From Cirrosporium novae-zelandiae (Eukaryota), in the NCBI GenBank assembly GCA_026023565.1, contig JAPETS010000002.1:310001-374000 (forward strand): a stretch of DNA of 64,000 bases. Reading direction: 5' to 3'. Under the pieces are notes generated by a model. The model made no database searches. It saw nothing but the letters and a program-made list of their open reading frames with translations, and had not been told where the DNA came from. How positions within the stretch are numbered: position 1 is the stretch's first letter; each line of letters opens with the position of its first letter. Made by a program: the position numbers and the translations under genes. This document shows, piece after piece, positions 1,409-63,689 of this stretch.

Positions 1409-4028
1409 CTAGTCGAGTTTGCTAGTTTTCATTTGACGAGAGAAATACACCGAACGAGGTTCGGTTTTTTCTCTTCGAGAATTCCAGAATTCAATAATAT
1501 TTGGGAGGGATTTTTGGTTGACAAATCCAATGTTGATGACCTTCACATCGTAATTTACAATGTAAATTTCATCAAGGTCAACGCTTGAATTGGGATGTAA
1601 TATCTGGTCGGGGTTTACTGGTATGATGCTGATTGATCTTTTGGGATCGACGGATTCTTGTTCAGGGGAGAATGGCTGTTCGCCTTCGATGTGAGTCATG
1701 ATATGTGACGCTTGATCAATCTTGTCATTCGAGGAGTCAATAGGTCTAAATAAATTAGCCACACGCAACATGCAATTTTTTTGGAAATTACTTACGAACA
1801 CACGCAACATTCTTCTATATTCTCAACGACAAGCATCCAGGCCAAATCCCAGGTTTTCCGAGATCCATCGCATTGAATAGTTGTTATAGTTTCACCGACA
1901 TCTAACGCGACTTCTGGCAATTTTTCCCGCAGCATTGCAAACACCTGTATATGTATTAGAAACTTTTTTATATTTGAGGTAAGAGAAGATTCCAACCCTT
2001 CCAATTTCAAAGAACCTCTTCCCGGAGAAATTCTCTGGGAGATCTAGCGACAGATATGAAAAATAAGTTCTTGTTTTTAGAAGATCCTGTGGTCATACCT
2101 ATTTTATGAAGATTATTATCGCTGGTCCTGCTCGTGCTTTTTGACTCTTCAATTTCTAGGGATAGCCTATCATGGGTGTCGGATGCTTCAATACTATCGG
2201 GCTGATCAAACAGGCTGTACTTAATTTCTGTGTCAGAAGATTTACCAACATACATTTTGCTAGCTCCAATCACAACACTCGTTGGGCTTTCATTACGATG
2301 GCTCTGTTCCTTATCAAAGCTAGATTCTCCGCCGTCATTCCCTAAAGGGAGACCATCCTTCTGCGAATAGTAACCATACTCTCCAGGATCATTGCTAGTG
2401 CATGAGGAACCATTGCTCTGACTATAAGATGGCCGAGCGGAGTTCATGCTAGAGGAAGTGGTACTTTTTATAAATAGAGAGCTGATAAGAAAGTATAAGT
2501 ATGGGACCAAATCCAACAAGGGGAGGAGCAAGGCGCACACAGCTTCTAGGGCCTTTTCTTTCGATATAATTTTAAGTCCAGTGTCAGAGTAGTACTGATC
2601 TCCATTTGAAAATATTCGATAAGAATAGCATTTATTGCTTTCTATTTCGGACCAAATATACCAAGGACTGCGATTTTGCCTAGATGAGAGGCGCAGAGAC
2701 TGTTCACTATGGGTGTGGGTGTACGAGAGCTTTGGGTGGGCACAAGACATGATCTGCTGAGGGAGACTTGGCTGGGTTATGGGATCCTGAATTTTAAATG
2801 AACTTCTGATTGGAAACTTCTTCGTCGTTTGAACAGAGAAAGGTTTCTTATTCCTAGGATAAACTGAACGGCCTCCCTGCTGTTTCATATATAGGGCTTC
2901 TTCAGGCATATTAGTGTGGTCTATCGCGGTATGCTCGCTGAATGCAGATGGCCAATTTGAAGCTGTGGCCGCTTCATCCTTGGTCCAATATTTAAGTGCA
3001 TATCCTGAATGTGTTGAGATATCAAGAGGTTCGCACAATTTACTCGAGACGTATTGCAAAAGTAAACGCTGGTTTTTTCTAGAAACCCGTAGTCGATGAA
3101 GTAGCCATTGATTCACTCGATCTCGAGAATTATTAAACTCCGTAAGAAGCGGATTGAGCATATCTCGATCCCTTTCTTCATCTAAAAGCAATGGATATAC
3201 ATTCCCGTCATTGCTATTTTCTTCCTCGTTATCTTCTGAGCTTGGAATGCCTCCGGAAAGTTCAGTGTCTTCGTGAATCGACGGTGCTGCGCTATTATCC
3301 GCATAGATAATCTGATGGTCGTTCCGGCTAACCGGGGATTCCCATAGCATTTCATTCTCTCGACGAATACCTGGAACTGGGTGATCATAATCTTGTTGTG
3401 AGGCTAGCTGGCAGCTTAAGCCAGTTGCTGGGTCGATTGAAAGTGTTCTGGGGGCACTTTTATTGTCCTGCCAATCACTGCTTGCCGACGAATATTGGCT
3501 TGCATTCAGTTCATCAAGTATGGGAAATTCTTGGGATGGTAGACTGGAAGCAATTGAGTCTTCGGGATGCTCCGCAAAATTGAATACGACTAATTTTAGT
3601 TTTTCATATGCCTTCTTCTCAAGACTGGCCAGTTTGAACTGCTCCCTGATGAAATCCATCTCGACACTTTTAAATTCTTCTTCCACCTTCGCATATTCGT
3701 TGTGGCAAGTCTGACATCTCTCGAAGTGTTCTACCAATATCTGTCTTTCAGCCGCTTGTGGAGAATCTTGCATAGTTTCAACACCACGCATCCAGTTCAG
3801 GAGGTTTATCTGAAGGGCTTGGCTCTTATTTCTGAGGTTATTTCTCATCTCCCGGACACCCGTGTGTTTATTGGTGACATTTTCTCTCTGCTTGAAAAGA
3901 TGTCGAAATATTTTCGGGATATCATAAGCTATCTCTTCGGTCATTCCATTGTGTATGGAAATTGGGGCGGAAGCTGCGCTCCTTAGGCCTAGTCTGCTAT
4001 CAGGTAGAGCTTTTGTAGGTAATACCAT
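1409..4028 (-). CDS. Multi-exon hypothetical protein: N-terminal coiled-coil/unknown fungal region fused to a degenerate C-terminal DUF6590-like domain
   Basis: The 673-aa ORF 2007-4028 can be joined to downstream exons by introns 1945-2015 (GTTCTT..CTAAT..CAG, weak donor) and 1746-1795 (GTAAGT..GCTAAT..TAG). The spliced C-terminus reads SPREFLREE-VFAMLREK...MLVVENIEECCVCSPIDS...ISIIPVNPDQILHPNSSVDLDEIYIVNYDVKVINIGFV, which is similar to the neighbouring + strand gene. Further in-frame introns are possible near 2464-2540. Confidence 0.65.
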
Positions 4029-4662
4029 TTTTTTGAATCGTCATTTTAACCGTTTATTTTATGCAGCTTTGGATACTAATCAGTGTGGAGATGTGAGTCG
4101 GTCGTAATGGAAGTTGCAAAAGTCGAAAGGCACGTGGCCTCCAAACGTCACAGGACTAGAGAAATGGACATAATAAATGAAACATATTCGACTAATTAAC
4201 CGTATCACCTTTATCTTGAAAAGGGGGTGTAAGGGTTTATGGAATTTCTCTGCTTGGCTATATTATATCGCGTTTACGTAGTAAAATTCAAGCCACGTTT
4301 GAGCAATCAAAAGAAAGCTTGACGGGGTACAAAATAAATATATCATAAATGAGGCGTTATGTTATCTTGTAACAATGTAGTAGACATTGAACTTAATATT
4401 ACTGTACGGAACGAAACAGTATTAGTACCGTATTTGGTATGCTAGTCTTGGCTCTTGTCATCCTTATCCGAACAGGGTAGACAACACAACGAGGCTCAAA
4501 AAAATGAAGGTCACTGCGGGGTCTACCCACTTCTTGCTTGCTTGCCTCTTGCTCTGCGAATGTCTACTTTTCAGCCGCAGAACTCCCCTTCCATATAAAC
4601 TCTTGAATGATGGGACACAAACTCCTGACCACCTTTGACCGGAAGGGAGTGAAACACAAACC

Positions 4663-5890
4663 ATGAATCCGCCATCGAAAGCTCCCATATATTCTGACAG
4701 TAATGGGCGACCCTACTATTACTGGATTAATGCGCAAGGTAAGCTCTGTTGAACCAGTCCAAGTCTCCTCACCTGACTAATCCTGAAGGCATTCCACAAA
4801 CCCAATGGCTAGAAACTGGAGAAAGTTCAAACACAGGAGACCAACTAAGCAGGTGTGTAACCAGCCTCATTATCTTTTATTTTCAAGAATGGCCGCTGTA
4901 TACAATTACCCATGTTTAGTATAATGCTGGTTTGCTTAGTTTCTGGAATCATATTCTTGGGTCATCATCCTAGGACTAACGGTATTCCAATGGTGGTCCC
5001 ATAAAATTGATGCATAACTCTTCTACATTTTTTTTCCTTTACAGGGTATAATACTAACTACTATACTAGCCCTGTGAGCACGGAGCCAGACGGCTCCTAT
5101 ATAAGCGGTGTGTTCTCGAATCGTTGTTATCTATGAAAGGCAAGACAGATAAGATGTCCATTGCCCACAAAATGCACAGATAGCTTGATTCCCTTTCTAA
5201 GGACTTGTTGCTAAAATTTATATTCTAGAGCCTGTCCCCAGCATTAATCAAGCGACCGATCAAGTGCCCCCTCCCACTCCCCCAGGCCAGCCAAAGGCCA
5301 TTCCTGATAATAGTAAGTAACCAGTTAGTGTTTCTTTCCTCCTAGTCGCTGCTAAACTTACCTAGGGTTCCATCTAATGGAAAATCCAAAAGAATTCTTC
5401 ACTAAGGGACGAGTCTTTGCTGTACAATGGTCTGAGCCCATGGGCAGCAATGCGCAAATGAATGCGAGTCGCGTGAGCTCCTTTCATGAAATACGTATGT
5501 TTATTGTCATGAAAACTAAGCCACGTCGTAATCATAGTATTTGCATGTACGTTTTTCTTTGGACACATTTGATGATAGTGTCTCACTATATGCAGCCCGA
5601 TCCACACATATGGAAACAGAGGATGCTTGAAACCGGGATTGTTCCCTGGGGATCATTCTATTATATATACGACCCCGAGCCCTCCTTCTCCACTCGAGGG
5701 AGAAGAGCTGGTTAAGGATCCCATTCAAGTCATCCCTGATGATAATGGAATCTCACTCCGACGAGAGTCGCGTGTAAATTTTGGAAAAGTATACACCGTG
5801 GAACACAATTGGAAGGTTTCTAGTATTGGAAAAGTGCATAGGGATGATCGCAAGATTATGAATAGCTACTTTATAAGCACTATGGGATGA
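4663..5890 (+). CDS. DUF6590-like domain protein (multi-exon)
   Basis: ATG at 4663 (MNPPSKAPIYSDSNGRPYYYWINAQG); clear introns at 4739-4788 and 5547-5595, plus GT..AG introns ending at 5044, 5228 and ~5364. The spliced domain reads RFHLMENPKEFFTKGRVFAVQWSEP...EIRMFIVMK...HSICIPIHTYGNRGCLKPG..HSIIY...SRVNFGKVYTVEHNWKVSSIGKV, matching the fungal DUF6590 consensus as I recall it. Exon structure between 4853 and 5044 is unresolved (micro-exons probable). Confidence 0.75.
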
Positions 5891-8800
5891 ACCTGAGTCC
5901 TATAGAGATGCTTGACATTAGAACTCACATTGATCTGTTCGAAGTACGTTCGATATGTGCCCTCGTTGCACACGTCTTCTATTATAATACGAACTTTACT
6001 CTGTTACTTGCGAGTCTACTTGGTCCCTAAGCTATCGGTATGATTACAACAGAACCCGAGCAACCAGTCTCGTTACTTTTATATGGCGTTGTGATATTTT
6101 TTTAATGGATTTATTATGACAATCTCTCTTTTTACAATTACTTGGCTAGACTTGGAGAGGTCTTACCAATTAGGTATAAGTGCCAACGACTATTTCCTGT
6201 CTTTTGCTCGGACCTTTTTAATCCTGTACGTTTGAATCGCTATCAATCATGACATGATGACATTATTTGCTCTCTATGGCACTTGGTCCATGAATAGATA
6301 ATTTATTCATACATGTAGGTAGTGTTGTTCAGAACACCAGAGCTAGTACCGTCCCCCCCCCCCCATGTACTCCAGGCTATTTATTCCAAAGTCATGAAAG
6401 TATTAGAAGTAGTACACCTTTGTCATAGCATCTGAGGATTCACATATCATTATCGATAATATAGATGGATGAGATTATTTTGTGCCGAATCAGTAATAAA
6501 CCCGAAGTTTTGGGTCCACAAAGGCTGGACGAAGGGATACTCGCGGAAGACATCTAAAGCGACCAGAGAACCGCTATTGATATTATTTCGGGGTATGTAG
6601 GGTTATGAATTTTGTTTGGCAAAAGCTTAGTTTAGTTAGAAACACTCGATGATTTGGTTTGGAAGTCTAGATTGGATAAGATAAGATAAGATATTTTCAT
6701 TATTTATATACTTGTCTACCCACTCATCCATCCATCCACCTATCTATCAACAACTTAATTCAAGAATCCCAGAATCCAAAGATCAAACCAAATCGCCTTA
6801 CTGTACAGTACACTACCTAGGTAAGGTAAATAGGATAGGTATGTTGTATGATTATCTTCTTCTTCTACTACTACTTATTATTTTAATAGCGATTACGATA
6901 TAAATGTTAGGGTGTGATCTAGTTACGTGATAGCTTGGTCCGTGCCACCACCTATTTAGGTTGTGCCACACATAATATTATTCTACAGTTGTCTCGTCAC
7001 TCGCTCTAACAATAAATAGATATTATAGATGACTTTCTTTTTGTGTGAAGAAGAAGAAGAAGACGAAGGAGAAAAGGAAGGGGATGGATATATGGATATA
7101 TGAAAAATGAAGCAAAACAAACGAAACAAAGAATATCTATGGCAGATGTAAATAAAGATATAAGGGCTCCAAAACGAGAAGGGGGGATAGGTTGGAGATG
7201 AACAAAGGGTTATAGATTAAGGGATCAATAATCAATAGGATTAGGATTGGTAGGATTGACTAGGAAGGAAATAATTCATAATCACTCAAGTAGATAGATA
7301 TCTAGATGGACCTTTTTGGAGGGGGGGGGAATTCATCCATAGCATACTTGTATAGCATAGTGTTGGGAAGCTAGATCTTGCGTGTTATACAACATAACTA
7401 CATACCTAGGTATCTAAGAGAGAAAAAAGATTCCTCTCCGTTCTCGTTCTCGTTCTCTTTCTATTCTACAAGATTCAAAAAATGAAGTAAGATAGAAACC
7501 CATTGACGCCGCCTCAGCCAAATTCTAAGTTCTGAATTCTCCCCCTCCCCCTTGTCCTTTTACTATATTTGTATAACGCTCCAAGGCTCTATGGACAAAA
7601 GAGAAAAAAGGAGAAAACGGCCCGTTTTATTTATATATTTGCCTAGGTAGGTAGGGTAGATAGGTGAATGATGAGTTAATTACCTACTTAGCTGGCTGAT
7701 TGACTAGTTGGTTAATTGGGAGAAGAAACCTGCACCTGTACCTGACTGCATTAACTAACAACTAGAAGAAGAAAAAGACTCTACCATTTTTAAGTTGTCC
7801 TAGTGTTGGATTGATTGTCGTGAATAACTAACCATGCTTATACCATACTATCGTAAATTAAGAACTTAAGAGTGTTGGTAAGCAATTGGAAGGGCGGCTT
7901 TCTAGTCTATTCTTTTTTCTCTTCTTCTTTATTTCTATACTTGGGTTTGGGGGATGATGGTGAATGAATGGGTGGGAATTGGGAGGGTGAAAATTCCAAA
8001 TGGATTGATTGCTGGTAATTTGGGAGTGGGAGTGGATGTGGGGACGGGGATGGGGAGGGATGGTTGTGTTGGCTGTTCGTTGTATAAGAGCATGAAGAGT
8101 TATATAATTTGTAGAAGCAGTGACTTTTTTGTGAGGTTCTTAGTTGGTTGGGTTAGGGTTTTGAGTAGCTAGAATTGAATTGTTTGGATGGTGATGGTTT
8201 TTTTTATGTGGATATCCAGCTTAAGTAGGTGGGTGAGTGTTGTCAAGAGGTTGAATTCTCGCTAGAAGGGATGACGAAGAAGAATGGAGAGATCGTGGAG
8301 TGTTATTTTATGGTGGAGTTGATCACACGCCTCATAATGTTGAACATAATGCTGTATTTGCATTGAAGATATACTCAGATTATTATTATTTCCCACTGGT
8401 TCGCTGACGGGCGTTGGATCCTCATAGAATCAAAGTCAACTGGAGAAGAGCGATGTGGCTATAGAAACGCTCGTAATAAGTTTCAAGGATCGCAGAGAGA
8501 CCATAGGAGATTCAACCCCTACCGGAGTACAAAGAAAGCATGTGAGATGATAGTTCTAGATATAATAAGTTCGGTAGAGACGAGTCGTCAAGGAGCCAAG
8601 GGAATAGGGTTTGCAGGCAACGGAACGAAAAAAACCTACCGTCAGTACCTCGTCGGATATTTATATCTTAAATAATGAAGCATGTTTTACTGCACATCCG
8701 GTTAGACGTATCGCAGCAGCTCCTTCGTACAATCAAGGCTTGGCGGATTCTTCCATATCAGCTGGTCATGGAGATCTCGCTATTGATCAAATCCATTGAT

Positions 8801-10345
8801 GCTCTTGTAAGGAGATACTTACTTCAAATATGTATCAATTGTTAGCCTCGAGGCTGGGAGTAGGATATCTGAATAGGATTTCAAATTCTGTAGTCCACCT
8901 TCCAAATACAACATGGCGGTTCCTGGTTCCTATAAGGCATTCCGCCAAGATGGCCTTACTCAGACACCTGCGGCCCGTCACAACCAGATCAATAGTGCAT
9001 TGGCAGGGCCAAGTTGACCGAATACTTGTTTTGATTAATTGGTGATGCAGCACCAATGACAAAAAAGCTTCTCTGGACTCTTCAGCTATTCTGTTGTTGC
9101 CCTGACCATGCTGCTGATCTTCAAAAATCCTCGCTACTTGTTACGGAAAGCATGAGTGTAACCTGGCCTGCACCATGGAAAATAGATATTTCACCTTTGC
9201 GCACGAATATTATTTATGAGTAGTTCCTTGATAGTCAGAGGATACTGGGTCAGAAAAGGAATAGGTCTGCTTGTCGACGGCACATGACGGAATACCAAGG
9301 ATAACACAGGCAGCGAAGTATGAATCTGGTCCTTGGATCCAAGATCCATTTGAATAGGCTGGATATGTATGAGGACCTGCATATCCACGTGTCAGAATAG
9401 GAACGGAGACCCTCGCGCTCCCATGATTCTGGAACCTATAGGCACAAATGGAGGGCCCCGAGTTCTGGTCTAGGTTATGGGGATGACCCCGCTGGGGATT
9501 GTTGGATTCTGGAGTCTACGGAGAAGATAGGATCCATCATTGTTCACTACCATGTTAGAGTCGAGACAAAAAGCTATCATCAGCCTAGCCATCGAATGTT
9601 TCGTAAGACAGATGGGTTGATCAACAAGGTTAGTGTAGGTTTGGCTTACTCGGATAGCACCGAGATTTCGCCTACAGCAAAAAATGAAAACCCCTATTAG
9701 TCAAATCATCGATGGATGATTCGGTGGTTCTTCGGATATATCAAAGTAAGGACCCGCAGCTGTCAAAAAGACATGATGGTTGATAGATCAAATGCATCAA
9801 AACAAGGGTTGAATGCAGCAATAAGATTGTTGAGCCGGGTTGTGGGCTCCCAATAAGGTCAGGTTGTAACCTTAATTTTCAACCTTGGGGTGCAGTCACT
9901 GATCTGCAACTAAAGTGGCGTTCTAGAAGCTGCAAAGAATCCGTTTAAATACCTCCACCATTGCCGCCACAAGTTCACAACACCATGTCACCGAAGAAGT
10001 GCCGCATACTAAAGAAAAAAATCGAGGGAAAAAAATGGCAAATTCATCTTGACAGTTTGATAGACTAAGAAAGGGTTTCTTGGATTAATTAGATTATTAG
10101 GTTACCCAAGTTTCCCTAATTGATTGCTTTGTTGAAATTCAAGCCAAGAAATTATTCTAAAGTCGCATCAAGATGTTCAAGCGTATCATCGCCACAACGA
10201 CCTTTGTTGATGCTGATGTTGTAGGCTATTAACCTACATAGGAGGCAGGTGACTCCGAACGACCAATAGTCATGTGCCCTTGATTTGATAGACAGAATAA
10301 AATGCATTTGGATGATATGCCGAGGTGAATGACGGATTAAGGTTA

Positions 10346-10390
10346 AGGAATTTGAGGAATTTAAGGAATTTGAGGAATTTAAGGAATTTA
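10346..10390. repeat. 9-bp tandem minisatellite AGGAATTTR x5
   Basis: aggaatttg aggaattta aggaatttg aggaattta aggaattta. Confidence 0.9.
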
Positions 10391-11703
10391 AGCCGCTTGT
10401 AGTTTAGTGGACGGTGATATAATCTTAAAATGGGTTAGCCTTAATAACTACGCGGCATTTCCTTCATCAGCTCCAGCATCGTCATCCAAAGAAATTTCAA
10501 TTGCTTACCATGCCTGGCCATCCAAGTGGTGATTAACGGTAATGAGCCACAAAATCATCCAAGCTTTTTTCTTCAATTTTCGTTCGTTCGCCCCAGCTCC
10601 TCTGATCTCTTGATCTCTTGAGTGCTGAAATTTCCAACCACTTGAAATTCATCTCTTATTTCGAGTCCAAATTTAAATGAACCCCACAGGTCCCACATAA
10701 TACCACCCCATCCAAGCTGAGGAGTTTTGGTGGGATGATACCCCACAAGCATTGGCTCCAGTTCAATTAATTGAAGCTTAATATGAAGCTAATATAAATG
10801 ACAATTGGTAGAAGTTGTCCCTTCTAAACGATCTTGGTAACATGTCGAACCAAGTAACATACCAGTTGCGCACATGCGAGAAACACAAGGCTGGCCACAC
10901 AATGTTACGATGGATAAAATGGAATGCGCCAACGTTGCCACGCGCTACATTTGCCGCAATCGATCATTTTTGATTGCAACCGTCCAGTTCTTTACTAAGC
11001 CAGTAAGACCAGAGAACTTGTATTTTTTATTTTTTATAGTTTATATCCTGTTACAATAACACCATTGTTCAGGCCTTCTAGTTCAGGCTTGAAACTATTT
11101 TGTGTCCGGCCTGAAATTTGATTGGAAATTGGTTAGGTTGGCTGTAGTTGGAAAACCCCTGCTTCTCTTGCCGAAGTCTAGAAACGAAGGAAGAGGTGAC
11201 ATTACTCCTTGGTCCATTGCTATGCAGTTCTGTACCACATGGCCCTGAAGGAGTTCTTCAGTTACCCTCCATGAGAACAACCAACCCCAGACAGCGGCAA
11301 CCAATTAGAAAACTATGCGATACCCACCTACCAATGACAGAAATAGTTTGTTCCTAGAATAGGTTGAGAAAAGATGAAGACTTAGTAACCGGTCACGATG
11401 CTTACCATCCTAGAAAGCTATTGGAGAATACCTTAACCATAAATCGATGGTGTTGAACAAAGGTCAAGACAGTAGAGGCGGCAATGTCTAGGATTACGGG
11501 AAGTTAAGTCCAAGGAACAGTTCGTGATGTCTGTGCCGATGCATCGGTGGTCATGGGAGGATGACTTTCAATTGACTTCCGAAAGCAAGAGGAAATTCTA
11601 AAGGAATTGAGTTTGTACCTATCTATAAATCATTACGCTTTCGGCGAACTGACCGATCCTGGTTAGAGTGAGATTTGTTAGGTGTTGTAGACATTTGGTG
11701 TCA

Positions 11704-11828
11704 CTGGGGAAGCTGGGGCTTTCTAGGGGTCCCCGCACTTGTTTTAGCCCACCACAGACTTATAGTGGTATACCTTGTCTAGATTTACTCCAGTACCGCC
11801 AACTAGCTGAGTGCTTCTCTCATAAAAG
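11704..11828 (+). promoter_or_regulatory. Putative CreA/Mig1 (SYGGRG) site cluster and TATA-like element upstream of the sugar transporter
   Basis: CTGGGG at 11704 and 11713, CCCCGC at 11731, CATAAAAG at 11821, followed by a pyrimidine-rich leader. This fits glucose repression of a high-affinity transporter. Confidence 0.45.
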
Positions 11829-12110
11829 CTCGACCTTCTGCTCATCTTTCAACTTCTCTTCAGTTCGTGTATACACATTCACTTGTGTCTTGTGACTACC
11901 ATCTCAAAGGCAAATTGCCTACGTCACCGTCCTCACCATCTTTGACAAAGGACTTGGGAATTTCCCAACACCTGCTCACCTCCACACTTATATTTACCTT
12001 CCGAAGCACTCATCACAACAATCAATTTCAATCAATTTCAATTAGAAAGTGTGTTTAACGAAAGTTGATTTTAAAGACCTCTCTTACACATCAACAGCAA
12101 AGTCGTCAAC

Positions 12111-13884
12111 ATGGGTTTCATGATTCGACCTCCACCGGGGGCGAGTGGTTCAGCCACCCCGGCCATAATTATTGGTTGCTTCGTTGCCTTTGGTGGTGTC
12201 CTCTTTGGGTGGGTTTTGTTTCCCTTGCTCCTTTTTTCATATGGGATTTAACTAACTTGTCGCAGATATGACACAGGTACCATCGGTGGCATTCTTGCTA
12301 TGCAGTATTGGCGCAATCTCTTCTCGACCGGTTACAAGAATCCTACCGACCACTTACCCGACATTACGTCCAGCCAACAATCCATGATTGTGTCTCTTCT
12401 CTCTGCTGGTACATTCTTTGGAGCTCTCTTCGCCGCCCCTCAAGCCGACATTCTCGGTCGTCGAATGGCCATGATTAACTCGTGCATTGTGTTCATGTTT
12501 GGTGTTATTCTTCAAACAGCAGCTACCGCTATTCCCCTCTTTGTTGCTGGTCGGTTCTTCGCTGGTTTGGGCGTTGGTCTTGTTTCTGCCACAAGTAAGC
12601 CACATCTGTCATGGTTTACTGGACAACCTACTAATAAACAACAGTTCCTCTCTACCAGTCGGAAACTGCACCAAAGTGGATTCGGGGTACCATTGTCGGA
12701 TGCTATCAATGGGCCATCACAATCGGCTTGTTCCTTGCTGCTATTGTCGACAATGCCACCAAGAACCGTAAGGATACTGGCTCCTATCGCATTCCGATCG
12801 CCGTGCAGTTTGCATGGGCACTCATCCTGATCGGTGGTATGTTGGTTTTACCAGAGACGCCTCGTTTTCATATCAAGAAGGGAAATCAGGAAAAGGCTGC
12901 CAAATCATTGTCCCGACTCCGAAGACTAGATGTTACGCACCCATCGCTCGTTGAAGAATTAGGCGAAATTCAGGCTAACCACCAATATGAACTCTCGCTC
13001 GGAAAAGCTACTTATATTGACTGCTTCAAGGGCAATATCGGATGGCGTCTTCTCACTGGCTGCCTTCTCCAAGCTCTTCAACAGTTGACCGGTGTCAACT
13101 TCATTTTCTACTATGGCACTTCCTTCTTCCAGAACTCTGGAATCACAAACTCCTTCATCATCTCGGTGATCACTGATGTTGTCAACGTATCTTCCACCGT
13201 TCCAGGTCTCTGGATGGTTGAGAAATGGGGACGTCGCCCGCTTTTGTTGTTTGGTGCCATTGGCATGTGCGTCTGCGAATTCATTGTTGCCATCGTTGGT
13301 ACGGTTGAAGGAAATGGATCCGATGTCGCCAACAAGGTTCTTATTGCATTTGTGTGCATCTACATCTTCTTTTTTGCCTGCTCATGGGGCCCTGTCGCTT
13401 GGGTTGTCACCGGTGAACTCTTCCCACTAAAGGTCCGCGCCAAGTGTCTGTCCATGACCACCGCTTCGAACTGGCTCCTCAACTGGGCTATTGCATATTC
13501 CACTCCCTACCTTGTAAATACCGGTCCTGGTAATGCTGGGCTCCAATCCAAGGTCTTTTTTATTTGGTTCGTGCATTTCTCTCCTTAACGTTGGGGGCTC
13601 ATACTGACTTTCACAGGGGTGGCTGCTGCTTCATCTGTATCCTTTTCGTGTGGACTATGATCTACGAAACCAAGGGTCTTTCGCTTGAACAGGTCGATGA
13701 ACTCTACTCCAAGGTTGACCATGCATGGAATTCGGCTAGCTTCGTTCCAACCGTGTCCTTCCAGGATGTTGAGGATATGGACATGGACACCAAACATGCA
13801 TCGCTGGCAGATATCGAGGCTAATGCCCAAAGGAAGCGAAGCGTTGCCCATGCCGAAACAGCCGATGTGACGGAAAAAGCCTGA
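12111..13884 (+). CDS. MFS sugar porter, high-affinity glucose/monosaccharide transporter (RCO-3/Snf3/Rgt2-related clade, no long C-terminal sensor tail)
   Basis: ATG at 12111 MGFMIRPPPG...FVAFGGVLFG/YDTGTIGG; motifs DILGRR, GRFFAGLGVG, PETPR, QQLTGVNFIFYYG, VEKWGRR, YETKG; three canonical introns (~12209-12265, ~12595-12643, ~13567-13615). Confidence 0.95.
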
Positions 13885-54431: not shown

Positions 54432-56626
54432 TCAAAATATCCCAAAACGTTTGGTTTTTCCCTTTTCTTCGCCTATTCCACCCATGAGTCAGTAAACTTC
54501 TAAACACCCCGAGAGAAAAATAAGCGACCTACCGTTATGTGTATTGCCATGCTTTTTTCCCTTGCCCCCACTTGTTGGTTCCGTCGACCCCCCTGAGGCT
54601 GCTGCTCGGATAGCAGTGAGCCTATGTTTTGCTCGTTCGTCGCCTTGGTCTGCTGCTTTCACATACCAAGCATTCGCTTCCAGAGGATCTCGTCGACATC
54701 CGATGCCCATCTCGGAGAAGTAGCCGACAGCATATTGAGCCTTGACCAAACCTAGTATACAATAATTAGCAAAATGGAGCAATTCGAATAGCAAGGTTGG
54801 ATCATACCTGTTTCCGCAGCTTTCTTCGCCCACTCAAATGCTTCATTCTCATCCTTTTCAAGAACGGGTTCCGCGCCGACCATATACCATGCACATAGTG
54901 CCATCATCGCCATAGGGTGACCTAGCTGAGCAGCACCATTGTAAAAATGAACACTTAAACCAGGGTCCCTAGGACAGCCCAATTTTCCATGTTCGTACGC
55001 ATCTCCCATGCGGTAACTAGCTTCTGGATGACCGAGATCAGCGGACTTGGTAAACAATTGAGCTGCATAGGCTTCGTCCTTGAAAACGTCATCTCCGTAG
55101 CCTGTCTCATGCAGTAGACCCAATTCATAAGGCGCGGAGTTATATTGAAAATCAGCAGATTCTGCTGCACGTTTCATCCATTTAACTCCTTCACGGTACC
55201 GATTCGTCAAGCCCATATCACCAAGCAAACAGGCTCTACCTAAACGAAGCATTGCACCAGGGTGGTTTCTTGAGGCTGCTGCGCGGTAAAATTGCTCAGC
55301 TTTTGCAGGATCTTTGCGGCAACCCCATCCAAACTCATAGCACAATGCTGCTCGGTAGCCAGATTCAGCATGGCCATGTTTACTTGCTGCAACAAACAAA
55401 GGAAAGGCCCTGTCATAATCCTCCTTTCCCTTACTGAATAGTCCAGAGGCATAGCCATCACCGAGGTAATACTGCGCAAATGGATAGCCACGATCGGATA
55501 GCTTTTGAAGGATATGCCGCGCTTCTCGGAGAAGCTCATCGCGCGAGTTACCTGGAGTTGGCTTCCCTTCCTCGTTCGGCAAACCCGTATCCCCAGCTTC
55601 TTGCGCTGCATTAACCATGAAAATAGCAAACTCGTACTGAACTGCGTTATCGTTTGTTTTCTTTACATTTGCACGGTACATTTCAAGTGTCTTGGTTGTG
55701 CTGAGCAAAGAGGCGCTGTTACCTACAGCGCTGCGTAAGTGAGAGTGATCTAGATTTACAGCCGCCGGAGGTGCTTGAGGATAGGGTACATTTAGAAGAT
55801 CGATATAAGACAGAGGACGTTGTTCGGGGGAAGGTCTGGAATGCGCAGATGAACCCCGTGCGTAATTGGTGGGCGAGAGCTGCGGAGAGCGACCTCTGGA
55901 ATCAGCAAGTGAAAACTGAGAATATGTTGAAATAGGACGCTGAAGCGAGTTTGCCGATCCTCTTCTTTGTGCCGGTGCTACGGATAGGCGGTTCCTATCA
56001 GTAGGTGACAATGATGAGTCCGACGTTGAAGACTGCACTGTAGCCCTTGATTGTCGATTTTTTAACTTTTGCGCTTCATTTGTCTCGTCAATGTTGTGTA
56101 GGTATTGAAGCTGAGGCTGAAGCTCCACAGGTTGGCTTTCCACACTTCCAGCAGAAAAATGTCTTGATTTTGCTTTCTCGTTTCCAACCCGAGATTCGAA
56201 ATTGTACTCCTGGTCCGGCGGGGCATCCAGGCTGAGTGGAGAAAGCATAGGACCGTTTGAAGAATCGGACGGAGGCCGTTGCCGTACTGGAAGGTCGAGA
56301 TGTGGAGGAGGGGTTGGAGGTGGAGGAGAAGTTGCAGTACTTATTGCTTGGGACGGATTTCTGTAACCAAGTGCAGGAGTTACTGTCTCAAACTCGGCAG
56401 CAGATGCTTGGAATTGCGATGTGTCTTGGGGGTGGTTAATCCGTACCGGAGACAATGGGGTCCCTTGCATACGAATCCCAACGTCTGGAATGATCGACGG
56501 TAGTGGTTTTCTGGAGGTTACCGGCTTTGGTAGAGACTTGATCTTTGTTCCATCTCGAGATGAATATGTTACTGAAAACACATGGGTTGGTGGGGATGAT
56601 GCATCCGGTAATGGTGTCTCCGCCAT
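54432..56626 (-). CDS. CHS4: Chitin synthase activator, Sel1-like repeat protein (Chs4/Skt5 family)
   Basis: TLEMYRANVKK, AQYYLGDGY, AASKHGHAESGYRAALCYEFGWG and multiple SLR repeats; introns ~54752-54807 and ~54473-54531; last exon ends KTKRFGIF*. The start codon is uncertain. Confidence 0.9.
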
Positions 56627-59600
56627 TTCCGCAATGCACACCGCGAGGTGGGGCTATGGCTAGTCTGTCTGTGCAATTATAGGATCCTGTTATCCAACTC
56701 GTCACCAAGATGCAAGATCCGCTCTAGTGTCCGTGTGTACCAATGCCAACAAGAGGGTTTGGACCATTAAACGTGTATATTGAGAATGTATACCAGTCGT
56801 AGATTAGGTATGGACAGGAAAAAGCCCCTAGCATAGATCGAGCGGATAAACTAGACCAATGTTCTCTTGCGATTATTTTAAGATCTTCCCTCCTTGTGTC
56901 TGTTAGTGAGCCGTAAGATATGTGAGTAGCAAATCTGGTCAACGAAAGATAGATCAATGTCGGGCGGGACGTGGGTCGTATTCGTAAGTGTCTCAATAAC
57001 ATAAAGGGAGGTCAATTCTCGAATGCGCTGCTGACGTGACGGAGCCAAAGGATCGTAGCAACAGTTGGGTTGGAGGGGATGACGAAAGGTATGGGTTATA
57101 CTGTGGGTATATTGCTAAGCTTCTTCTCCATTTAGATATATGCAATGCTAAGTAGGCAGTGTAGGCCAGGGAAATATCTGAAACCAAAATTCATATGGGA
57201 CTTACTTTGAATTTGCGTACCAAAGAAAATGTGGGATCTAAATTCAGGGAAAGCAGACCTTGGAAGCCGTGGAGAGAATGGGGGGCTCTGAATGGTGGTG
57301 CTATGTCTTTGCTTTTACTCTAACAAGAGTCTAAAAGACTGGGGCGCGCCGCAGAGGAGAGGCGGAGAAGGAGGGATCAAAGGATCTTCCAGGAACAAAA
57401 AGGGTCACACGTTTTTCGTTGAGTGGATGGACTGGACTTGGTCTTTCTGCGGCGAGGAGCGAGCAACGGTTGAATCGGCACTGGACAGACTTCAGGGGCT
57501 CACACGAGTGTTCATGCGATGATAGGCATTATTAATGATGACTTCACTTTGTTAGGCAATTGGAACATTGAAATGTTTTATGCTTAACTGCGGTATGTTA
57601 GTTAGGCCAACTGTTTTGGGCCGCAATTCCCGTAGATACAGTAAGAGAAAAAAAAAAGGGTCAAGGTCGGAAACGGCGAATTAGTCAAAGAAATCATTAC
57701 TCGGATACAGCTTGAGGCTGGGAACGAGAAGGCGGGGACCAACCCAGCCATGGTAAAAAAGAGTGTTATTGAGTTGTGTCAGTTAAGACAGTTACTGTAC
57801 CATAATCATCAGTAACAAAAAAAATCAATGATGCCAAGCGGAGTAGTCAATTGGTCTAATTGCTGTTAAGTCACTGTCCTGGCCGTACTTGGAGTGTTTT
57901 TAATTTTTAGTGAGGAGACTAAAAACCGCATCAAGCGGAATGAGACATCAGTTGACCTTCAACGTTCATAGTAGCTGTTGGCATCCTCAGAAATTCGGTA
58001 TCCCCGAGATCTAAGAGTCGTCCTGGATGGAAATGAAGTCGACAACAGGAAAAAAAAATTACTTCAGATAACCGGTTCATACTTGGGTTTTTATCTATAG
58101 GTCAACCAACTAAAAAAACTCCCGATAGATAGGTTTAATGATAACAACAAACATCTCTTATCTATGTCTATTTGATGGAATCTGGGGTAGTTCAAGCCAT
58201 GTCGCAAGACCCATTTTCCTGATTCAACTATTTGTTGCACAGATAACTTCTATGGAGCTTCTCTGCTTCCCTCAGCTGCATCAAGGGTCCTTATCATGAT
58301 TCACGATTATATATTCAACAAGGTAACAGGTACCGTAACAGGTAACCACACAGTACAAGCCATTAGCCACCACGTGGTTACCGGATGCAAACCAAGCTGC
58401 AAAGGTTGCAAAGGCTGCAAACAGAAAAGCCATCTGAGGGGGTAGGGGGGTGGGGTTTGCGGCAATCTAGGGCTATTCATTATTGCGACGCCTTCAGATA
58501 TTCCTGTCTTTGGATGTCTTAGATGTCTTGACTCTTTGCTGGCCCCGCTACTACTACTCTCTTCTTGCCCCCCCATATCCAAGTACTGATGGCTCATTTT
58601 GTCTGAGATTTCCGACATTTCTAGATTCTTCACTCACTCACTTTTTTAGACGTGGCTTAGGGAGACCCTGAGTTGTTGGCCCAATAAATAACTGAGGAAT
58701 AGAGGATGCAAGCACTAGGCCCACCTTGTTTTTAGCCAAAAAAGGGTATTAACAACCTAATATTGTCCCAGTCCCCTCCCATGTCATCAAAAATAGAAAC
58801 AATGTGGAAGAATCACAAAAATATGTAAAGTCAAAATGTATTGCTCGATGGCCAAACGGAATTTCTCATCATTGTCTTATGGTCACAATGGGCTGATGTA
58901 GGTGAGGCTTCCAAACCATCCAGGTATCCAACATCCGACGCCCAACACGAGGTTTTTCTTTTCGAAAAAATACCTCTGTAACTATACTTGTGTACTTGCT
59001 GTACCTGTCAGCAAATGGATAACTCTTGTCTGTACCTGAGACTACTACAGTAATCAATGATTTGTTAGCGATCAACTTCAAGGGTAGGAGGAAGTATAAC
59101 TCCTTACTACGCGACTGATCTTCAGGCTGCTTTTAAAGTAAAGTAACCTCATCGCTGGCGTCAAGAGCCTGTTCAACTTAAAACAGGACTGTGGAGATTT
59201 GCAAGGATGCGGACATGAACACAGGAGTGGAAATGTCACTTGGCCGGCTGGTGCTCCCTTGTTGCTCTTGCAACAGCCGAAAATGGTTGCTTTCCAATGC
59301 TTGGCCCTGACCTTGCCCAAGATTGGCTCCGGATACGGTACGAGAGGTGCCAGACTTCCAAATAATACGAGACGGAGCTGGGTAACATCATTTTCCCACC
59401 ACTATGTCTCACATCAACTTCTTTTTGAATAAGCACACCTATCCTTGAACATAACACTCCAAGCCTTTTTTTCTGTATCATATTCATCTTTCTTTACCTC
59501 GTCAACCCCATCTACTCCACTCCCCAGGTTAGCTGGGCCCCATGTCCATATTTCGTGAACGCTTTATACTGTACAGCAGAAAAGTTTGTTCGTTTTCCTG

Positions 59601-59939
59601 AGCTTCACTCTTCGAATATTTGGAATATAATCGCCTTTATTCTCCTTCACTGGAAGAATTGATAATCATTGCGCCTGTCGTTCTTGTTTGGCGACTGTAA
59701 TTGATTCGTGGCTGTAAAGGTCTTCTAAAGCTCTGAAATTGTGGAGATTCTCGAAGTTAACATCAGAAGGTCTGGAGTGAAGTTCCACCACAAAGTATCA
59801 AAGTAGCTGGGAATCCGTTTTTTAAAAATCATCTCTGGCACTTGGTGCCAAGAGATTAAAGAATCCGAGTAAGTGATGGTCTCGTTAGACGGATATCTAT
59901 CGCTTGAATGTTGCTAACAGTCCTCATATTTGTAGCACC

Positions 59940-62900
59940 ATGTCTTCCCCTTACAAGCCAGCTTCGGGCTCACCTACTCGAGACAGGCGCTCCCATCATC
60001 ATCACCACCATTCACGATCACGGCGCAGTCGACCTCAAGACGAAGAAGCTGGATATAGCTATCAACCACAGGTCCCGGCTACTCCATATTCGCCGACACG
60101 CAAATTTCAACCCGAATCTGATGCGCATTCTATACCATCACCTACAAGGGGAAGCGCGGAGAGAGACTCTATGATGTCAGAGCAGAGAGGATCATACGAT
60201 TTGGGGCGGAAGAAGAGTCTAATAAGACCAGAGAGAACCCGTATAGACCGAGACCATCCTAATTATCACTATCGCAAGCATGCTCAGAACATGGAAGTCC
60301 TTCCCTCAACTACTGGCAATGATCCGATATTGGAGGATCTTGGCGAAGCAGCAACAAATAGCTCTGAGACGAGTGATCAGAAAAGCTTCAATAGGGGAGA
60401 CCAGCATGGCCCAGGTGGTATGGCTTACTCGGATGGCACTTCTCCTCGAAAAAAGAAACATCATGATGCCACACACACAGGGAAAGGGAGCAGGAAGATA
60501 CATCGAAAGTTGACCCGGAAAGATGCTAAAGTACTAGAAGCGGAAGAGAAGCAACGGCAAAAAGAACGAGAAAATCTGAGACCACCAAGCTTCTGGAACG
60601 TTTATTGTGCTATAGTCACTTTCTGGTGTCCAAATGCTGTATTGAAATGCTTTGGAAAACCCGCAAAGGCTCAACAAAGGGCTTGGCGTGAGAAAATGGG
60701 GCTCTTAAGTATAATTCTATTAATCTGCACTTTCGTCGGGTACTTGACCTTTGGCTTCACAGCAACCGTGTGTGGCACAGCCGGTGTACGACTAAAGGTT
60801 AATCATGTCGATGGTGGATACATGATATTTCACGGATATGCCTATAATCTTGTATCCTCCTCCCATCCTGCTGCGGATGGTATTCCTTCCGGTTCCAATG
60901 TGCTATACGATCTTACCCATAAATACAGTGGTCAGGATGGAAGCTTCCTCTTCCAAAATGTAAATGGCGCATGCAAGGGATTGATTACCAAAACTAACGA
61001 TTCTAATATCCCTAGCGACTCGGATGGAAACCTTGGTTGGTATTTCCCTTGCCACGCTTTCAATCAGGATGGATCAAGTACGCCAAACTATACCAGTCCA
61101 TACTACACCGGATATGCTTGCCATACTACAAAGGCGGCACGGAAGGCATTCTATTCATTGTCAAACAGCGGAGAGGTCTATTTCACCTGGGATGATGTTA
61201 AGAATTCTAGTCGCAACCTGATGGTCTATTCTGGTAGTGTTCTTGATCTTGACCTTCTGAAGTGGTTCAATACTTCTGACGTTTCTTACCCTACTGAATT
61301 TGACCATATTCGAAAAAATTCGGCTGTTCGGGGCGTTGATGTCACCAGGGCATTCCAGACCGCTGGAGACAAGAAGACCGCTGAGTGTTTGAGCCAAATA
61401 ATCCGTGTTGGTTCTATTGATACCGAGACTATTGGCTGCATCGCGTCCAAGGTTGTCCTCTACGTCTCCCTCGTTTTTATCCTGTCCATTGTCCTAGCCA
61501 AATTCTTCCTTGCTTTGGCCTTCCAGTGGTTCCTTGCACGCCGTTTTGCGGCCTCGACAACCTCTTTAGGGGGACCGAACGATAAGAAAAGACAGCAAGA
61601 GATCGAGGATTGGAGTGATGATATATATCGTCCACCCCCAAAACTGGGTGACGCTAGAACAGGCTTGTCGGATAAATCCAGCAAAAGGGTTAGCACTTTG
61701 TTACCGAGGACCTCCAGGTTCACCAGCCCATATGCTGTCGATCAAGGCATGTCAAAACGGCCTCCGCCTACGACCATGACTAGCCAGAACCCAATTTCCC
61801 GACTCGCAGCTCACAATTCAATTTACAAACAAGGGAATGGTAGTCAAGGAACTCTTCCAAGTTATGAGCCAACAACACGCATGAGCATGACTGCTGGAGG
61901 TACTTTTTCTGGAACCGGATACTCACAGGATCAGTCCCAGTCGACAACAATAGATTCTGAGGGCCCGGGTTCTATTGGTTTCATACACGAGAATGTTGTC
62001 CCACAACCTCCACCTGAATGGCAACCCTTTGGATATCCTCTAGCTCATTCAATATGTTTAGTCACGGCATACTCTGAAGGAGCCGAAGGAATTCGCACCA
62101 CTCTGGATTCTATTGCCACTACAGATTATCCCAACAGCCATAAAACAATTCTTGTAATCTGCGATGGTATAATTAAAGGCAAGGGAGAGGACCTTAGTAC
62201 GCCTGAAATTGCTCTCAGCATGATGAAAGAACATGCAGTCTTGCCCGACGAAGTTCAGGCTTTTTCATATGTCGCCGTCGCCAGTGGCTCGAAAAGACAT
62301 AGTATGGCCAAGGTTTATTCTGGTTTTTACGACTACGGTACGCATTCGGTGATACCTCGCTCCAAGCAACAGCGTGTGCCCATGATGGTTGTGGTTAAAT
62401 GTGGGACCCCTGATGAAGCAAAGAAGAGTAAACCTGGAAACCGAGGAAAGCGAGACAGCCAAATCATTCTAATGTCCTTCCTGCAAAAGGTCATGTTCGA
62501 TGAGCGAATGACAGAGCTTGAATTTGAAATGTTCAATGGTCTTTGGAAAATTACTGGAATATCTCCGGATTTCTACGAAACTGTACTGATGGTGGATGCT
62601 GATACCAAGGTCTTCCCTGATAGCCTGACGCACATGATCTCTGCGATGGTTAAAGACCCAGACATTATGGGACTTTGCGGGGAGACGAAGATTGCCAATA
62701 AGAGAACGAGTTGGGTTACAATGATCCAAGTCTTCGAATACTTCATCTCCCACCACCAGTCGAAGTCTTTCGAATCAGTCTTCGGAGGTGTGACTTGCCT
62801 CCCAGGCTGCTTCTGTATGTATCGAATCAAGGCACCCAAGGGAGGTCAAAACTACTGGGTCCCAATCTTGGCGAACCCTGACGTTGTTGAGCACTACTCG

Positions 62901-63689
62901 GAGAATGTTGTTGATACGTTGCATAGGAAGAACCTTCTTCTTCTTGGTGAAGATCGTTACTTATCAACACTGATGTTGAAGACGTTTCCTAAAAGAAAGC
63001 AAGTATTCGTGCCCCAGGCTGTCTGCAAAACAACAGTACCGGACAAATTTTCTGTGCTACTCTCCCAGCGACGAAGATGGATCAACAGTACAGTTCATAA
63101 TCTCATGGAATTAGTTCTTGTCCGAGACCTTTGTGGAACATTTTGCTTTAGTATGCAGTTTGTGGTGTTTATTGAACTGGTTGGTACTTTAGTTTTACCT
63201 GCTGCCATCACTTTCACATTCTACGTCGTCATCAAGTCTATTATTGGTCCGGTTCAAACGATTCCTATAATCCTTCTCGCCCTAATCCTAGGATTACCCG
63301 CAGTTCTAATCGTTGTTACTGCTAAGCGGTGGTCCTACGTCGTATGGATGTTCATATATCTTCTCTCCCTTCCAGTCTGGAATTTTGTCCTCCCCTCATA
63401 TGCCTATTGGAAGTTTGACGACTTCAGCTGGGGAGATACTCGAAAGACAGCGGGAGAAAAGACAAAGAAAGCCGGAATAGAATACGAAGGGGAATTTGAC
63501 AGTACCAAGATCACCATGAAGAGATGGGCGGATTTCGAGAAAGGTAAATGATTTTCACGCCTTTTCCTCACCTTTAACTAACCTTTTGCTCTAGAACGCC
63601 GATTAAGAAACCCCGCATTTTCCCAACAGTCTACTTCAGCTAGTGGGTGGACTTCCCAACCTCAAGGCTCCGAACGCTATGAATATTAA
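59940..63689 (+). CDS. chsD: Chitin synthase class IV (yeast Chs3 / Aspergillus ChsD type)
   Basis: [18 protein letters not shown], cytochrome-b5-like region, [56 protein letters not shown]; no myosin motor domain; terminal intron 63544-63594; probable 5'UTR intron 59869-59935. Confidence 0.97.

Follow-up and report, generated by a model that had tools for sequence, protein, structure and literature searches.

A head-to-head pair of genes at positions 1409 to 5890 of a 64,000-nucleotide stretch of the fungus Cirrosporium novae-zelandiae (contig JAPETS010000002.1, positions 310,001 to 374,000; hereafter "the window") encodes two very unequal members of the protein family DUF6590. On balance we favour a descriptive reading in which a canonical member on the plus strand stands beside a degenerate local offshoot of the lineage of a nearby gene, M1834_002778, the degenerate copy being most likely a pseudo-enzyme. 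The contig belongs to a metagenome-assembled genome, and NCBI annotates the products of both genes as hypothetical proteins. The window is of fungal origin, and a query with the last exon of the plus-strand gene was 100% identical to a database protein of 245 amino acids (P0002). The 801-residue product of the minus-strand gene (P0008) was retrieved with the long exon of that gene and is encoded on the same contig.

To compare the gene models with these proteins letter for letter, we joined the exons by coordinate in a script and translated them. The plus-strand gene (M1834_002781, 4663..5890) consists of exons 4663-4738, 4789-4852, 5070-5107, 5229-5312, 5366-5546, and 5596-5890, with its stop codon at 5888-5890, and its spliced translation is exactly P0002. 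The minus-strand gene (M1834_002780, 1409..4028) consists of exons 4028-2539, 2481-2099, 2043-1997, 1944-1796, and 1745-1409, with its stop codon at 1411-1409, and it yields exactly P0008. GT..AG ends were found in nine of nine introns. The ATG codons at 4663 and 4028 leave 634 bp between them (4029..4662, GC content 0.404), a region in which the annotated models place no additional open reading frame and which may be a shared bidirectional promoter. A preliminary description of this DNA had reported two divergent genes whose ATGs lie about 630 bp apart, and the spliced models agree with it. It had also connected the exons at 1409-1944 to the long exon of the minus-strand gene. That connection stands in the model, but a 47-nt exon (2043-1997), which lies between introns 2098-2044 and 1996-1945 and encodes the start of the domain (the "FF..GR" motif), had been overlooked. 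The in-frame intron 2538-2482 of the same gene is a prediction, and support for both models comes from annotation and from homology that extends over the splice junctions.

Both proteins end in a DUF6590-type domain, as had been proposed. Against the Pfam profile (PF20233; gathering cut-off 27 bits), P0002 scored 153.3 bits over residues 96-235 (profile positions 1-149 of 152) and P0008 scored 67.5 bits over residues 633-773 (profile positions 1-150 of 152). A Pfam scan at E <= 0.1 detected nothing besides DUF6590 in either protein. On the DNA, the canonical domain occupies 5380..5872 on the plus strand (residues ~93-245), where it is interrupted by an intron, and the degenerate, acidic domain occupies 1490..2043 on the minus strand (residues ~630-785) and is spread over three exons. 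A six-frame search with the domain profile recovered the plus-strand domain as two pieces and found no DUF6590 copy in the window beyond these two. The two domains share 24% identity over 160 residues (E 2e-4).

The intron that interrupts the plus-strand domain is a phase-2 intron of 49 nt (5547-5595) at the boundary between the conserved Cys and the "PI" motif. A phase-2 intron of 50 nt (1746-1795) lies at the equal domain position of the minus-strand gene, and both sit one codon before the "PI" motif. The preliminary description had recognized this shared position correctly and had taken it as evidence that the two genes are paralogs. To survey the intron, we ran a six-frame domain-profile search over 57 metagenome contigs that encode relatives. 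Among 65 near-full copies, 44 were split at profile columns 58-66, 16 were unsplit, and five had overlapping pieces; these counts are not independent, because several of the metagenome loci are one sequence from different samples. The shared intron is therefore a family-wide feature and is not particular to this gene pair. We rejected it as a sign of recent duplication, and our best tree, described below, places the two domains in different subfamilies.

The two copies differ sharply in what they have kept of the family. We aligned 154 relatives to the domain profile and took the 21 best-conserved columns. P0002 retains 20 of the 21 residues and P0008 retains six, while the other 121 of the 123 single-domain proteins in the set retain at least 15. 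The residues lost from P0008 are Trp18, Glu20, Arg47, Arg48, Phe49, Thr66, Tyr67, Gly71, Lys74, Arg122, Asn124, Lys127, Glu132, His133, and Asn134, and the conserved loop after the "PI" motif carries a six-residue gap. A core is still present (FF, GRVF, Cys61, Pro63, Ile64, His82, Glu98, Ser121, and Gly141). With a net charge of -12 (pI 4.5), the P0008 domain is the most acidic of 184 domains; the next lowest has -5, the median of the set is +6 (median pI 9.4), and the P0002 domain itself has +6. The earlier claims of a basic plus-strand copy facing an acidic minus-strand copy that has lost its Arg are thus both borne out. Because of the lost residues, the loop gap, the acidity, and an exceptionally long branch in the tree, the minus-strand copy looks like a pseudo-enzyme, and a non-catalytic role is, judged from its sequence, most likely.

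The nearest relative of the minus-strand domain is not its divergent neighbor. Among its 153 relatives the plus-strand gene ranks only 146th. The closest is P0114, the canonical 420-residue product of M1834_002778 (28% identity, E 1e-18), a gene on the same contig that lies two locus tags from the minus-strand gene, to the left of the window. A quick tree gave P0008 no supported position and was replaced by a more careful one. For this we drew 69 domains (nine chosen, 24 random multi-domain, and 36 random single-domain rows) from 177 near-full domains, leaving out the remaining 108. In the careful tree P0008 groups with P0114, P0093, P0100, and P0123 (support 100/96), and its end branch of 3.23 is the longest of the 69 (median 0.66). 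P0002 groups with P0009 (99/82) and P0043 (95/92). We considered P0009 as an orthologue of the plus-strand gene and rejected it; it is a paralog encoded elsewhere in this genome, on a different contig. P0093, P0100, and P0103 are Aspergillus proteins, and the P0103 cluster has 16 members from A. flavus and related species. These Aspergillus relatives indicate that the P0114 lineage is conserved and that P0008 is its fast-evolving local offshoot. The two window genes belong to a local cluster of at least three DUF6590 genes, M1834_002778, _002780, and _002781.

A second shared element lies upstream of the domains. The preliminary description had noted an aromatic motif in both proteins, and a motif profile indeed matches residues 7-36 of the plus-strand protein and 453-484 of the minus-strand protein. 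In the plus-strand gene this hairpin motif is encoded at 4681..4820, across intron 4739-4788, and the AlphaFold2 model shows strands at 17-22 and 28-32 with a predicted local distance difference test score (pLDDT) of 83-89. In the minus-strand gene it is encoded at 2577..2672, with modeled strands at 472-475 and 478-481. The profile matches 13 of 176 family proteins, seeds counted, and 11 of these carry the motif among their first 46 residues. It stands at the extreme N-terminus of P0114, P0002, P0009, and P0077 and also near the N-termini of P0003 and P0005. The motif is short, two-stranded, and rich in Trp and Tyr, with a Gly at its end, and it recalls a WW domain, although Pfam WW did not match it at E <= 0.1. 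Given its position at 453-484 of P0008, the last 350 residues of that protein look like a whole P0114-type protein to which an extension of about 450 residues has been added. This extension (2673..4028 on the minus strand), whose presence had likewise been pointed out, is modeled as a long helical hairpin (residues 31-153) and a helix (284-331), the rest being predicted to be disordered. It has no Pfam match. Word-based searches with P0008 residues 1-643 and 615-801 returned only P0008 itself, and an Atlas look-up with the N-terminal 480 residues gave only rows below threshold.

To place the domain among known folds, we compared predicted models with experimental structures. The AlphaFold2 model of P0002, built on an alignment of 50 family members, has a mean pLDDT of 83.7, and within residues 93-245 the blocks reach 96-98 except in the loop 111-130 (69 and 78). 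In a Foldseek search of the Protein Data Bank (PDB) all top matches were MazF, the best being 4mzm_C (E 8e-4, target template-modeling score 0.70). VIA-align superposed P0002 on MazF 7ewj_H with a Z of 11.6 and a root-mean-square deviation (rmsd) of 2.6 over 107 of 114 residues. MazF from M. tuberculosis, B. subtilis, and E. coli gave Z values of 10.3-11.4 (10.8 for E. coli), and CcdB gave about 10. The model of P0008 has a mean pLDDT of 55 overall with blocks of 85-98 in the domain, which matched MazF with a Z of 10.7 and an rmsd of 3.2 over 108 residues. These models support membership of both domains in the MazF/CcdB fold superfamily, that is, an SH3-like barrel with a C-terminal helix. The "MazF-like" label given earlier therefore holds at the level of the predicted fold; the chemistry may be that of MazF or may be CcdB-like.

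Sequence comparison gave a fainter trace of the same relation. PDB sequence searches with P0002 and with the family profile returned nothing at E <= 10. Profile comparison with hhalign found a local Cys-x-Pro..Thr match, both to E. coli MazF alone (E 0.002, probability 14%) and to 79 MazF orthologues (E 3.7e-4, probability 36%), a match that spans just 12-15 columns. The global hhalign alignment to MazF was meaningless, and the local one was used instead. When the alignment is extended, at low confidence, family residues Gly11, Trp18, Arg47, Cys61, Pro63, and Thr66 fall on MazF Gly10, Trp14, Arg29, Cys48, Pro50, and Thr53. One study gives the catalytic pair of MazF as an Arg and a Thr, namely Arg25/Thr48 for the B. 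subtilis enzyme and Arg29/Thr52 for a homologue (PMC10893535). Arg47 is present in 92% and Thr66 in 93% of the DUF6590 family; P0002 has both, and P0008 has Ala and Ser in their places. The equivalence of Arg47 and Thr66 with the catalytic pair is drawn from this low-confidence alignment and not from superposed coordinates.

The family around the two window genes is large. With P0002 as the query, HMMER recovered 2353 representative clusters at E <= 0.001 and 1182 at the stricter limit of E <= 1e-10. The members that have been named belong to Aspergillus, Xylona, Trichoglossum, Hyaloscypha, Mytilinidion, Scytalidium, Monilinia, Sclerotinia, and Clonostachys, so far all of them Pezizomycotina fungi. 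At least two DUF6590 domains occur in 31 of 156 relatives, a share that is inflated because the summed score ranks multi-domain proteins higher. In many tandem proteins one domain lacks Glu98, Arg122 (replaced by Leu, Tyr, Met, or Phe), and His133 (replaced by Thr); P0012, P0014, P0017, P0022, P0025, P0033, P0015, P0035, P0036, P0037, P0042, and others show this triple loss. Its recurrence in one of two tandem domains suggests an old subfamily of asymmetric pseudo-dimers. A few second domains are as degenerate as the domain of P0008. Examples are found in P0085, whose domains score 180.9 and 47.2 bits and keep 18 and 8 of the 21 conserved residues, and in P0062 (177.4 and 32.7 bits; 17 and 7 of 21).

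We also scanned 42 relatives of at least 480 amino acids with Pfam for other domain architectures. Three of them (P0007, P0048, and P0056) carry DUF6590 N-terminal to an NPHP3_N/NACHT module and one (P0061) N-terminal to NB-ARC plus TPR; these NACHT/NPHP3_N and NB-ARC plus TPR fusions are architectures of the NOD-like receptor (NLR) type. Other fusions involve ankyrin repeats (P0032), PNP_UDP (P0039), and a protein kinase (P0126), and in the other 35 of the 42 DUF6590 is the sole domain.

Two or three copies of the domain occur in 10 of the 57 metagenome loci, mostly on the same strand. L105, flagged as an eleventh locus, proved to be an artefact, and L120 and L121 represent a single region. 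No head-to-head pair within 1 kb was present among the 57 loci. In L122 (9315-11557) two copies are convergent with 1.2 kb between them, and L108, L113, and L124 hold tandem copies within 0.2-0.5 kb of each other, each pair of which may be one gene with two domains; the weaker copy in L113 and in L124 reaches about half the score of its neighbor.

Taken together, these observations can be read as follows. In canonical DUF6590 members, which are basic, strand 2 begins with an Arg and strand 3 ends with a Thr. The conserved Arg and Thr at what would be the places of the MazF catalytic residues, together with the basic charge, suggest that canonical DUF6590 proteins are most likely dimeric effectors that bind or cleave RNA. 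The plus-strand protein is such a canonical member and would most likely bind or cleave RNA as a dimer. The minus-strand gene would be a fast-evolving duplicate of the neighboring 002778 lineage that retained the fold, lost 15 of the 21 conserved residues including Arg47 along with the six loop residues after "PI", turned strongly acidic, and gained a 450-residue N-terminal extension with a predicted coiled coil. If its product is still tied to the family function, it would most likely act as a partner or regulator of a canonical domain, either that of P0002 or that of P0114, through a MazF-type dimer face. The many relatives with tandem domains, one of them degenerate, may be the counterpart of such an arrangement in cis.

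Several observations weigh against this account. The splicing of the two genes is predicted from the models and their co-expression is conjectural, and the approximately unbiased test does not reject a topology in which P0008, P0002, and P0009 form one group (log-likelihood difference 7.4, p 0.287). The single conserved position at which P0002 departs from the family is a Met at column 48, where 82% of members have Arg. The fold does not show whether a protein is an RNase like MazF or a gyrase poison like CcdB (Z ~10), and sequence comparison lends weak support to homology with MazF (hhalign probability 14-36%). The PemK_toxin profile (PF02452) matched none of P0002, P0008, P0007, and P0003 in Pfam scans at E <= 0.1, and the aligned Thr66 falls one residue off MazF Thr52. 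We found no report of nuclease activity or RNA binding for any DUF6590 protein. As for the minus-strand gene, the high pLDDT of its domain may reflect the family alignment and does not prove selection, and word-based searches found no orthologue from which a ratio of nonsynonymous to synonymous substitution rates (dN/dS) could be calculated.

One alternative is that the two proteins are obligate partners in a single asymmetric MazF-type dimer, with the shared 634-bp promoter matching their amounts and the coiled-coil extension providing localisation or control. MazF-fold proteins are known to be dimeric, and dimeric entries are among the structure matches. The head-to-head arrangement would suit such a pair, as would the 31 of 156 relatives with at least two domains in one chain, the combination of a high-scoring and a very degenerate domain in P0085 and P0062, and the canonical copies that lie beside weaker ones in metagenome loci L113, L124, and L132. 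On the other hand, the nearest relative of the minus-strand domain, P0114, is an equally good candidate for a partner, no second head-to-head pair closer than 1 kb occurs among the metagenome loci, an orthologue of the minus-strand gene did not appear in the word-based searches, and divergent neighbors are common in fungal genomes. A predicted complex of P0002 residues 90-245 with P0008 residues 622-801 scored 0.01 against a mark of 0.34; the prediction was run without alignments or controls and is not evidence either way. We regard obligate pairing as rather unlikely. A different possibility is that the minus-strand gene is decaying or mis-modeled, a duplicate under relaxed selection whose function has no link to the plus-strand gene. 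The longest end branch of the 69 rows and the loss of 15 of 21 conserved residues could be explained in this way. So could the failure of our searches to find relatives of the N-terminal 643 residues or close relatives of the domain, as well as a splicing pattern that is predicted only, with a weak donor site (GTTGGA) at one intron and an in-frame intron that is purely a prediction. However, the frame of 801 codons continues without a stop through four introns whose phases are correct, the domain retains its hydrophobic core together with structural motifs (FF, GRVF, Cys61, Pro63, Ile64, and Gly141), and the changes are directional, toward acidity, rather than random. Decay is quite improbable in our judgment.

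The pair could also be a toxin/antidote module, selfish or defensive, in which the plus-strand protein is a MazF-like toxin neutralised by the minus-strand protein and in which losing only the minus-strand gene would kill the cell or lead to drive or incompatibility. The predicted MazF fold of the plus-strand domain, the contrast between a basic canonical copy and an acidic dead one, their tight divergent linkage, and the position of DUF6590 N-terminal to NACHT/NB-ARC NTPases in 4 of 42 long relatives (P0007, P0048, P0056, and P0061) all fit this idea. Most family members, however, have no such partner, and 123 of the proteins examined are single-domain. At least two further canonical copies, P0009 and P0114, occur in the same genome, and no degenerate neighbor is known for them. 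Bacterial MazF is neutralised by the unrelated MazE and not by a paralog, and Pfam recognizes only DUF6590 in the minus-strand protein. The rest of the window encodes housekeeping functions (a sugar transporter, a transcription factor, a kinase, an S9 peptidase, a myosin I, and a chitin synthase), which do not point to an accessory or conflict island. We consider such a module very unlikely. The degenerate paralog as an "antidote" is an idea, not a finding, and it is the only candidate for that role at the locus. A broader proposal regards DUF6590 as a branch of the MazF/PemK RNase toxins in eukaryotes, employed by Pezizomycotina fungi as a cell-death or defence effector, either singly, in tandem, or attached to NLR-type receptors; at this locus the effector would be checked or aimed by a charge-reversed dead paralog. 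We hold this to be doubtful. If it were true, the locus would encode a toxin-pseudotoxin pair in which a dead paralog replaces one subunit of the dimer, and it would represent a novel mode of control for a MazF-fold enzyme that needs no antitoxin of the MazE type.

How far the likeness to known systems goes can be stated more closely. With MazF/PemK/Kid and CcdB the domain shares a predicted SH3-like barrel, the strand order, and the C-terminal helix, nearly the whole MazF chain being covered. The local Cys-x-Pro..Thr match and the basic character of the family add to this likeness, and so may the conserved Arg and Thr, which the low-confidence alignment sets near the catalytic pair. In contrast to MazF, DUF6590 is eukaryotic and intron-bearing, measures about 150 instead of about 110 residues, and forms part of longer proteins, where it is often repeated in tandem or joined to modules of the NLR type. 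It also has conserved residues (Lys74, His82, Glu98, Ser121-Arg122, and Glu132-His133-Asn134) for which we recognized no MazF counterpart. Unlike in a type II MazEF module, the adjoining gene encodes an 801-residue paralog on the opposite strand, and there is no small antitoxin of the MazE/AbrB or ribbon-helix-helix type. Within Pfam DUF6590 both proteins fit, P0008 being an extreme outlier of the sample in conservation, acidity, and branch length. Tandem proteins such as P0085, P0062, P0012, and P0022 combine a canonical with a variant or degenerate domain, as the window pair does; in the window, however, the two domains are on two divergent genes and the degenerate one carries the 450-residue extension.

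Fungal NLRs usually bear cell-death effector domains at their N-terminus. DUF6590 occupies that position in P0007, P0048, P0056, and P0061, which resemble fungal NLR proteins of the STAND class (signal transduction ATPases with numerous domains), whereas Pfam detects no NTPase or repeat module in the window proteins. The likeness to the wtf, Spok, and het killer loci is confined to the idea of a linked harmful and protective function; we found no relation in sequence or fold.

To our knowledge, MazF-type toxins are regarded as a prokaryotic invention. Our literature search found no paper that mentions DUF6590 or PF20233 and no native fungal MazF-like protein. The available part of PMC2446400 reports no eukaryotic matches to MazF. 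In a survey of fungal NLR effectors, the main text does not contain MazF, PemK, CcdB, toxin-antitoxin, ribonuclease, or "DUF65" (PMC9815663), and DUF6590, PF20233, MazF, and PemK do not occur in 10 of its 13 supplementary files; files 8, 9, and 10 lay outside the search and could bear on the matter. The fold relation may already be recorded in Pfam clan assignments or in the AlphaFold DB. What appears to be new here, as far as predicted models allow, is a MazF/CcdB fold in a eukaryotic, intron-bearing family of multiple architectures, a canonical member of which is accompanied at this locus by a probable pseudo-enzyme paralog and not by an antitoxin of the MazE type.

Other features of the window were noted in passing. 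Downstream of the minus-strand gene lies a (GT)n microsatellite of about 12 units (421-444). On the other side of the pair, about 6 kb (5891-12250) have no open frame of at least 130 amino acids; this region includes the lowest GC content of the window (0.376 at 6001-8000) and, judged by eye, many short direct repeats of the "gata/ggat" type. A further pair of divergent neighbors consists of a gene for a Sel1-repeat protein (54752-56653, minus strand) and a gene for a class IV-type chitin synthase (59889-63551, plus strand), the latter with a Chitin_synth_2 and a CHS4 domain.

If the two genes are unrelated neighbors, the locus is ordinary and only the family-level fold assignment is of interest. 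That assignment describes a fungal family of thousands of members with a MazF-like predicted fold, a conserved Arg and Thr, tandem pseudo-dimers, and NLR-type fusions. The locus itself offers a natural pair, an intact-looking domain and a dead acidic one, for asking whether pseudo-enzyme paralogs regulate such effectors. If the relation to MazF is true, DUF6590 would be another bacterial conflict domain reused in eukaryotic immunity or allorecognition, and the family would gain a testable function.

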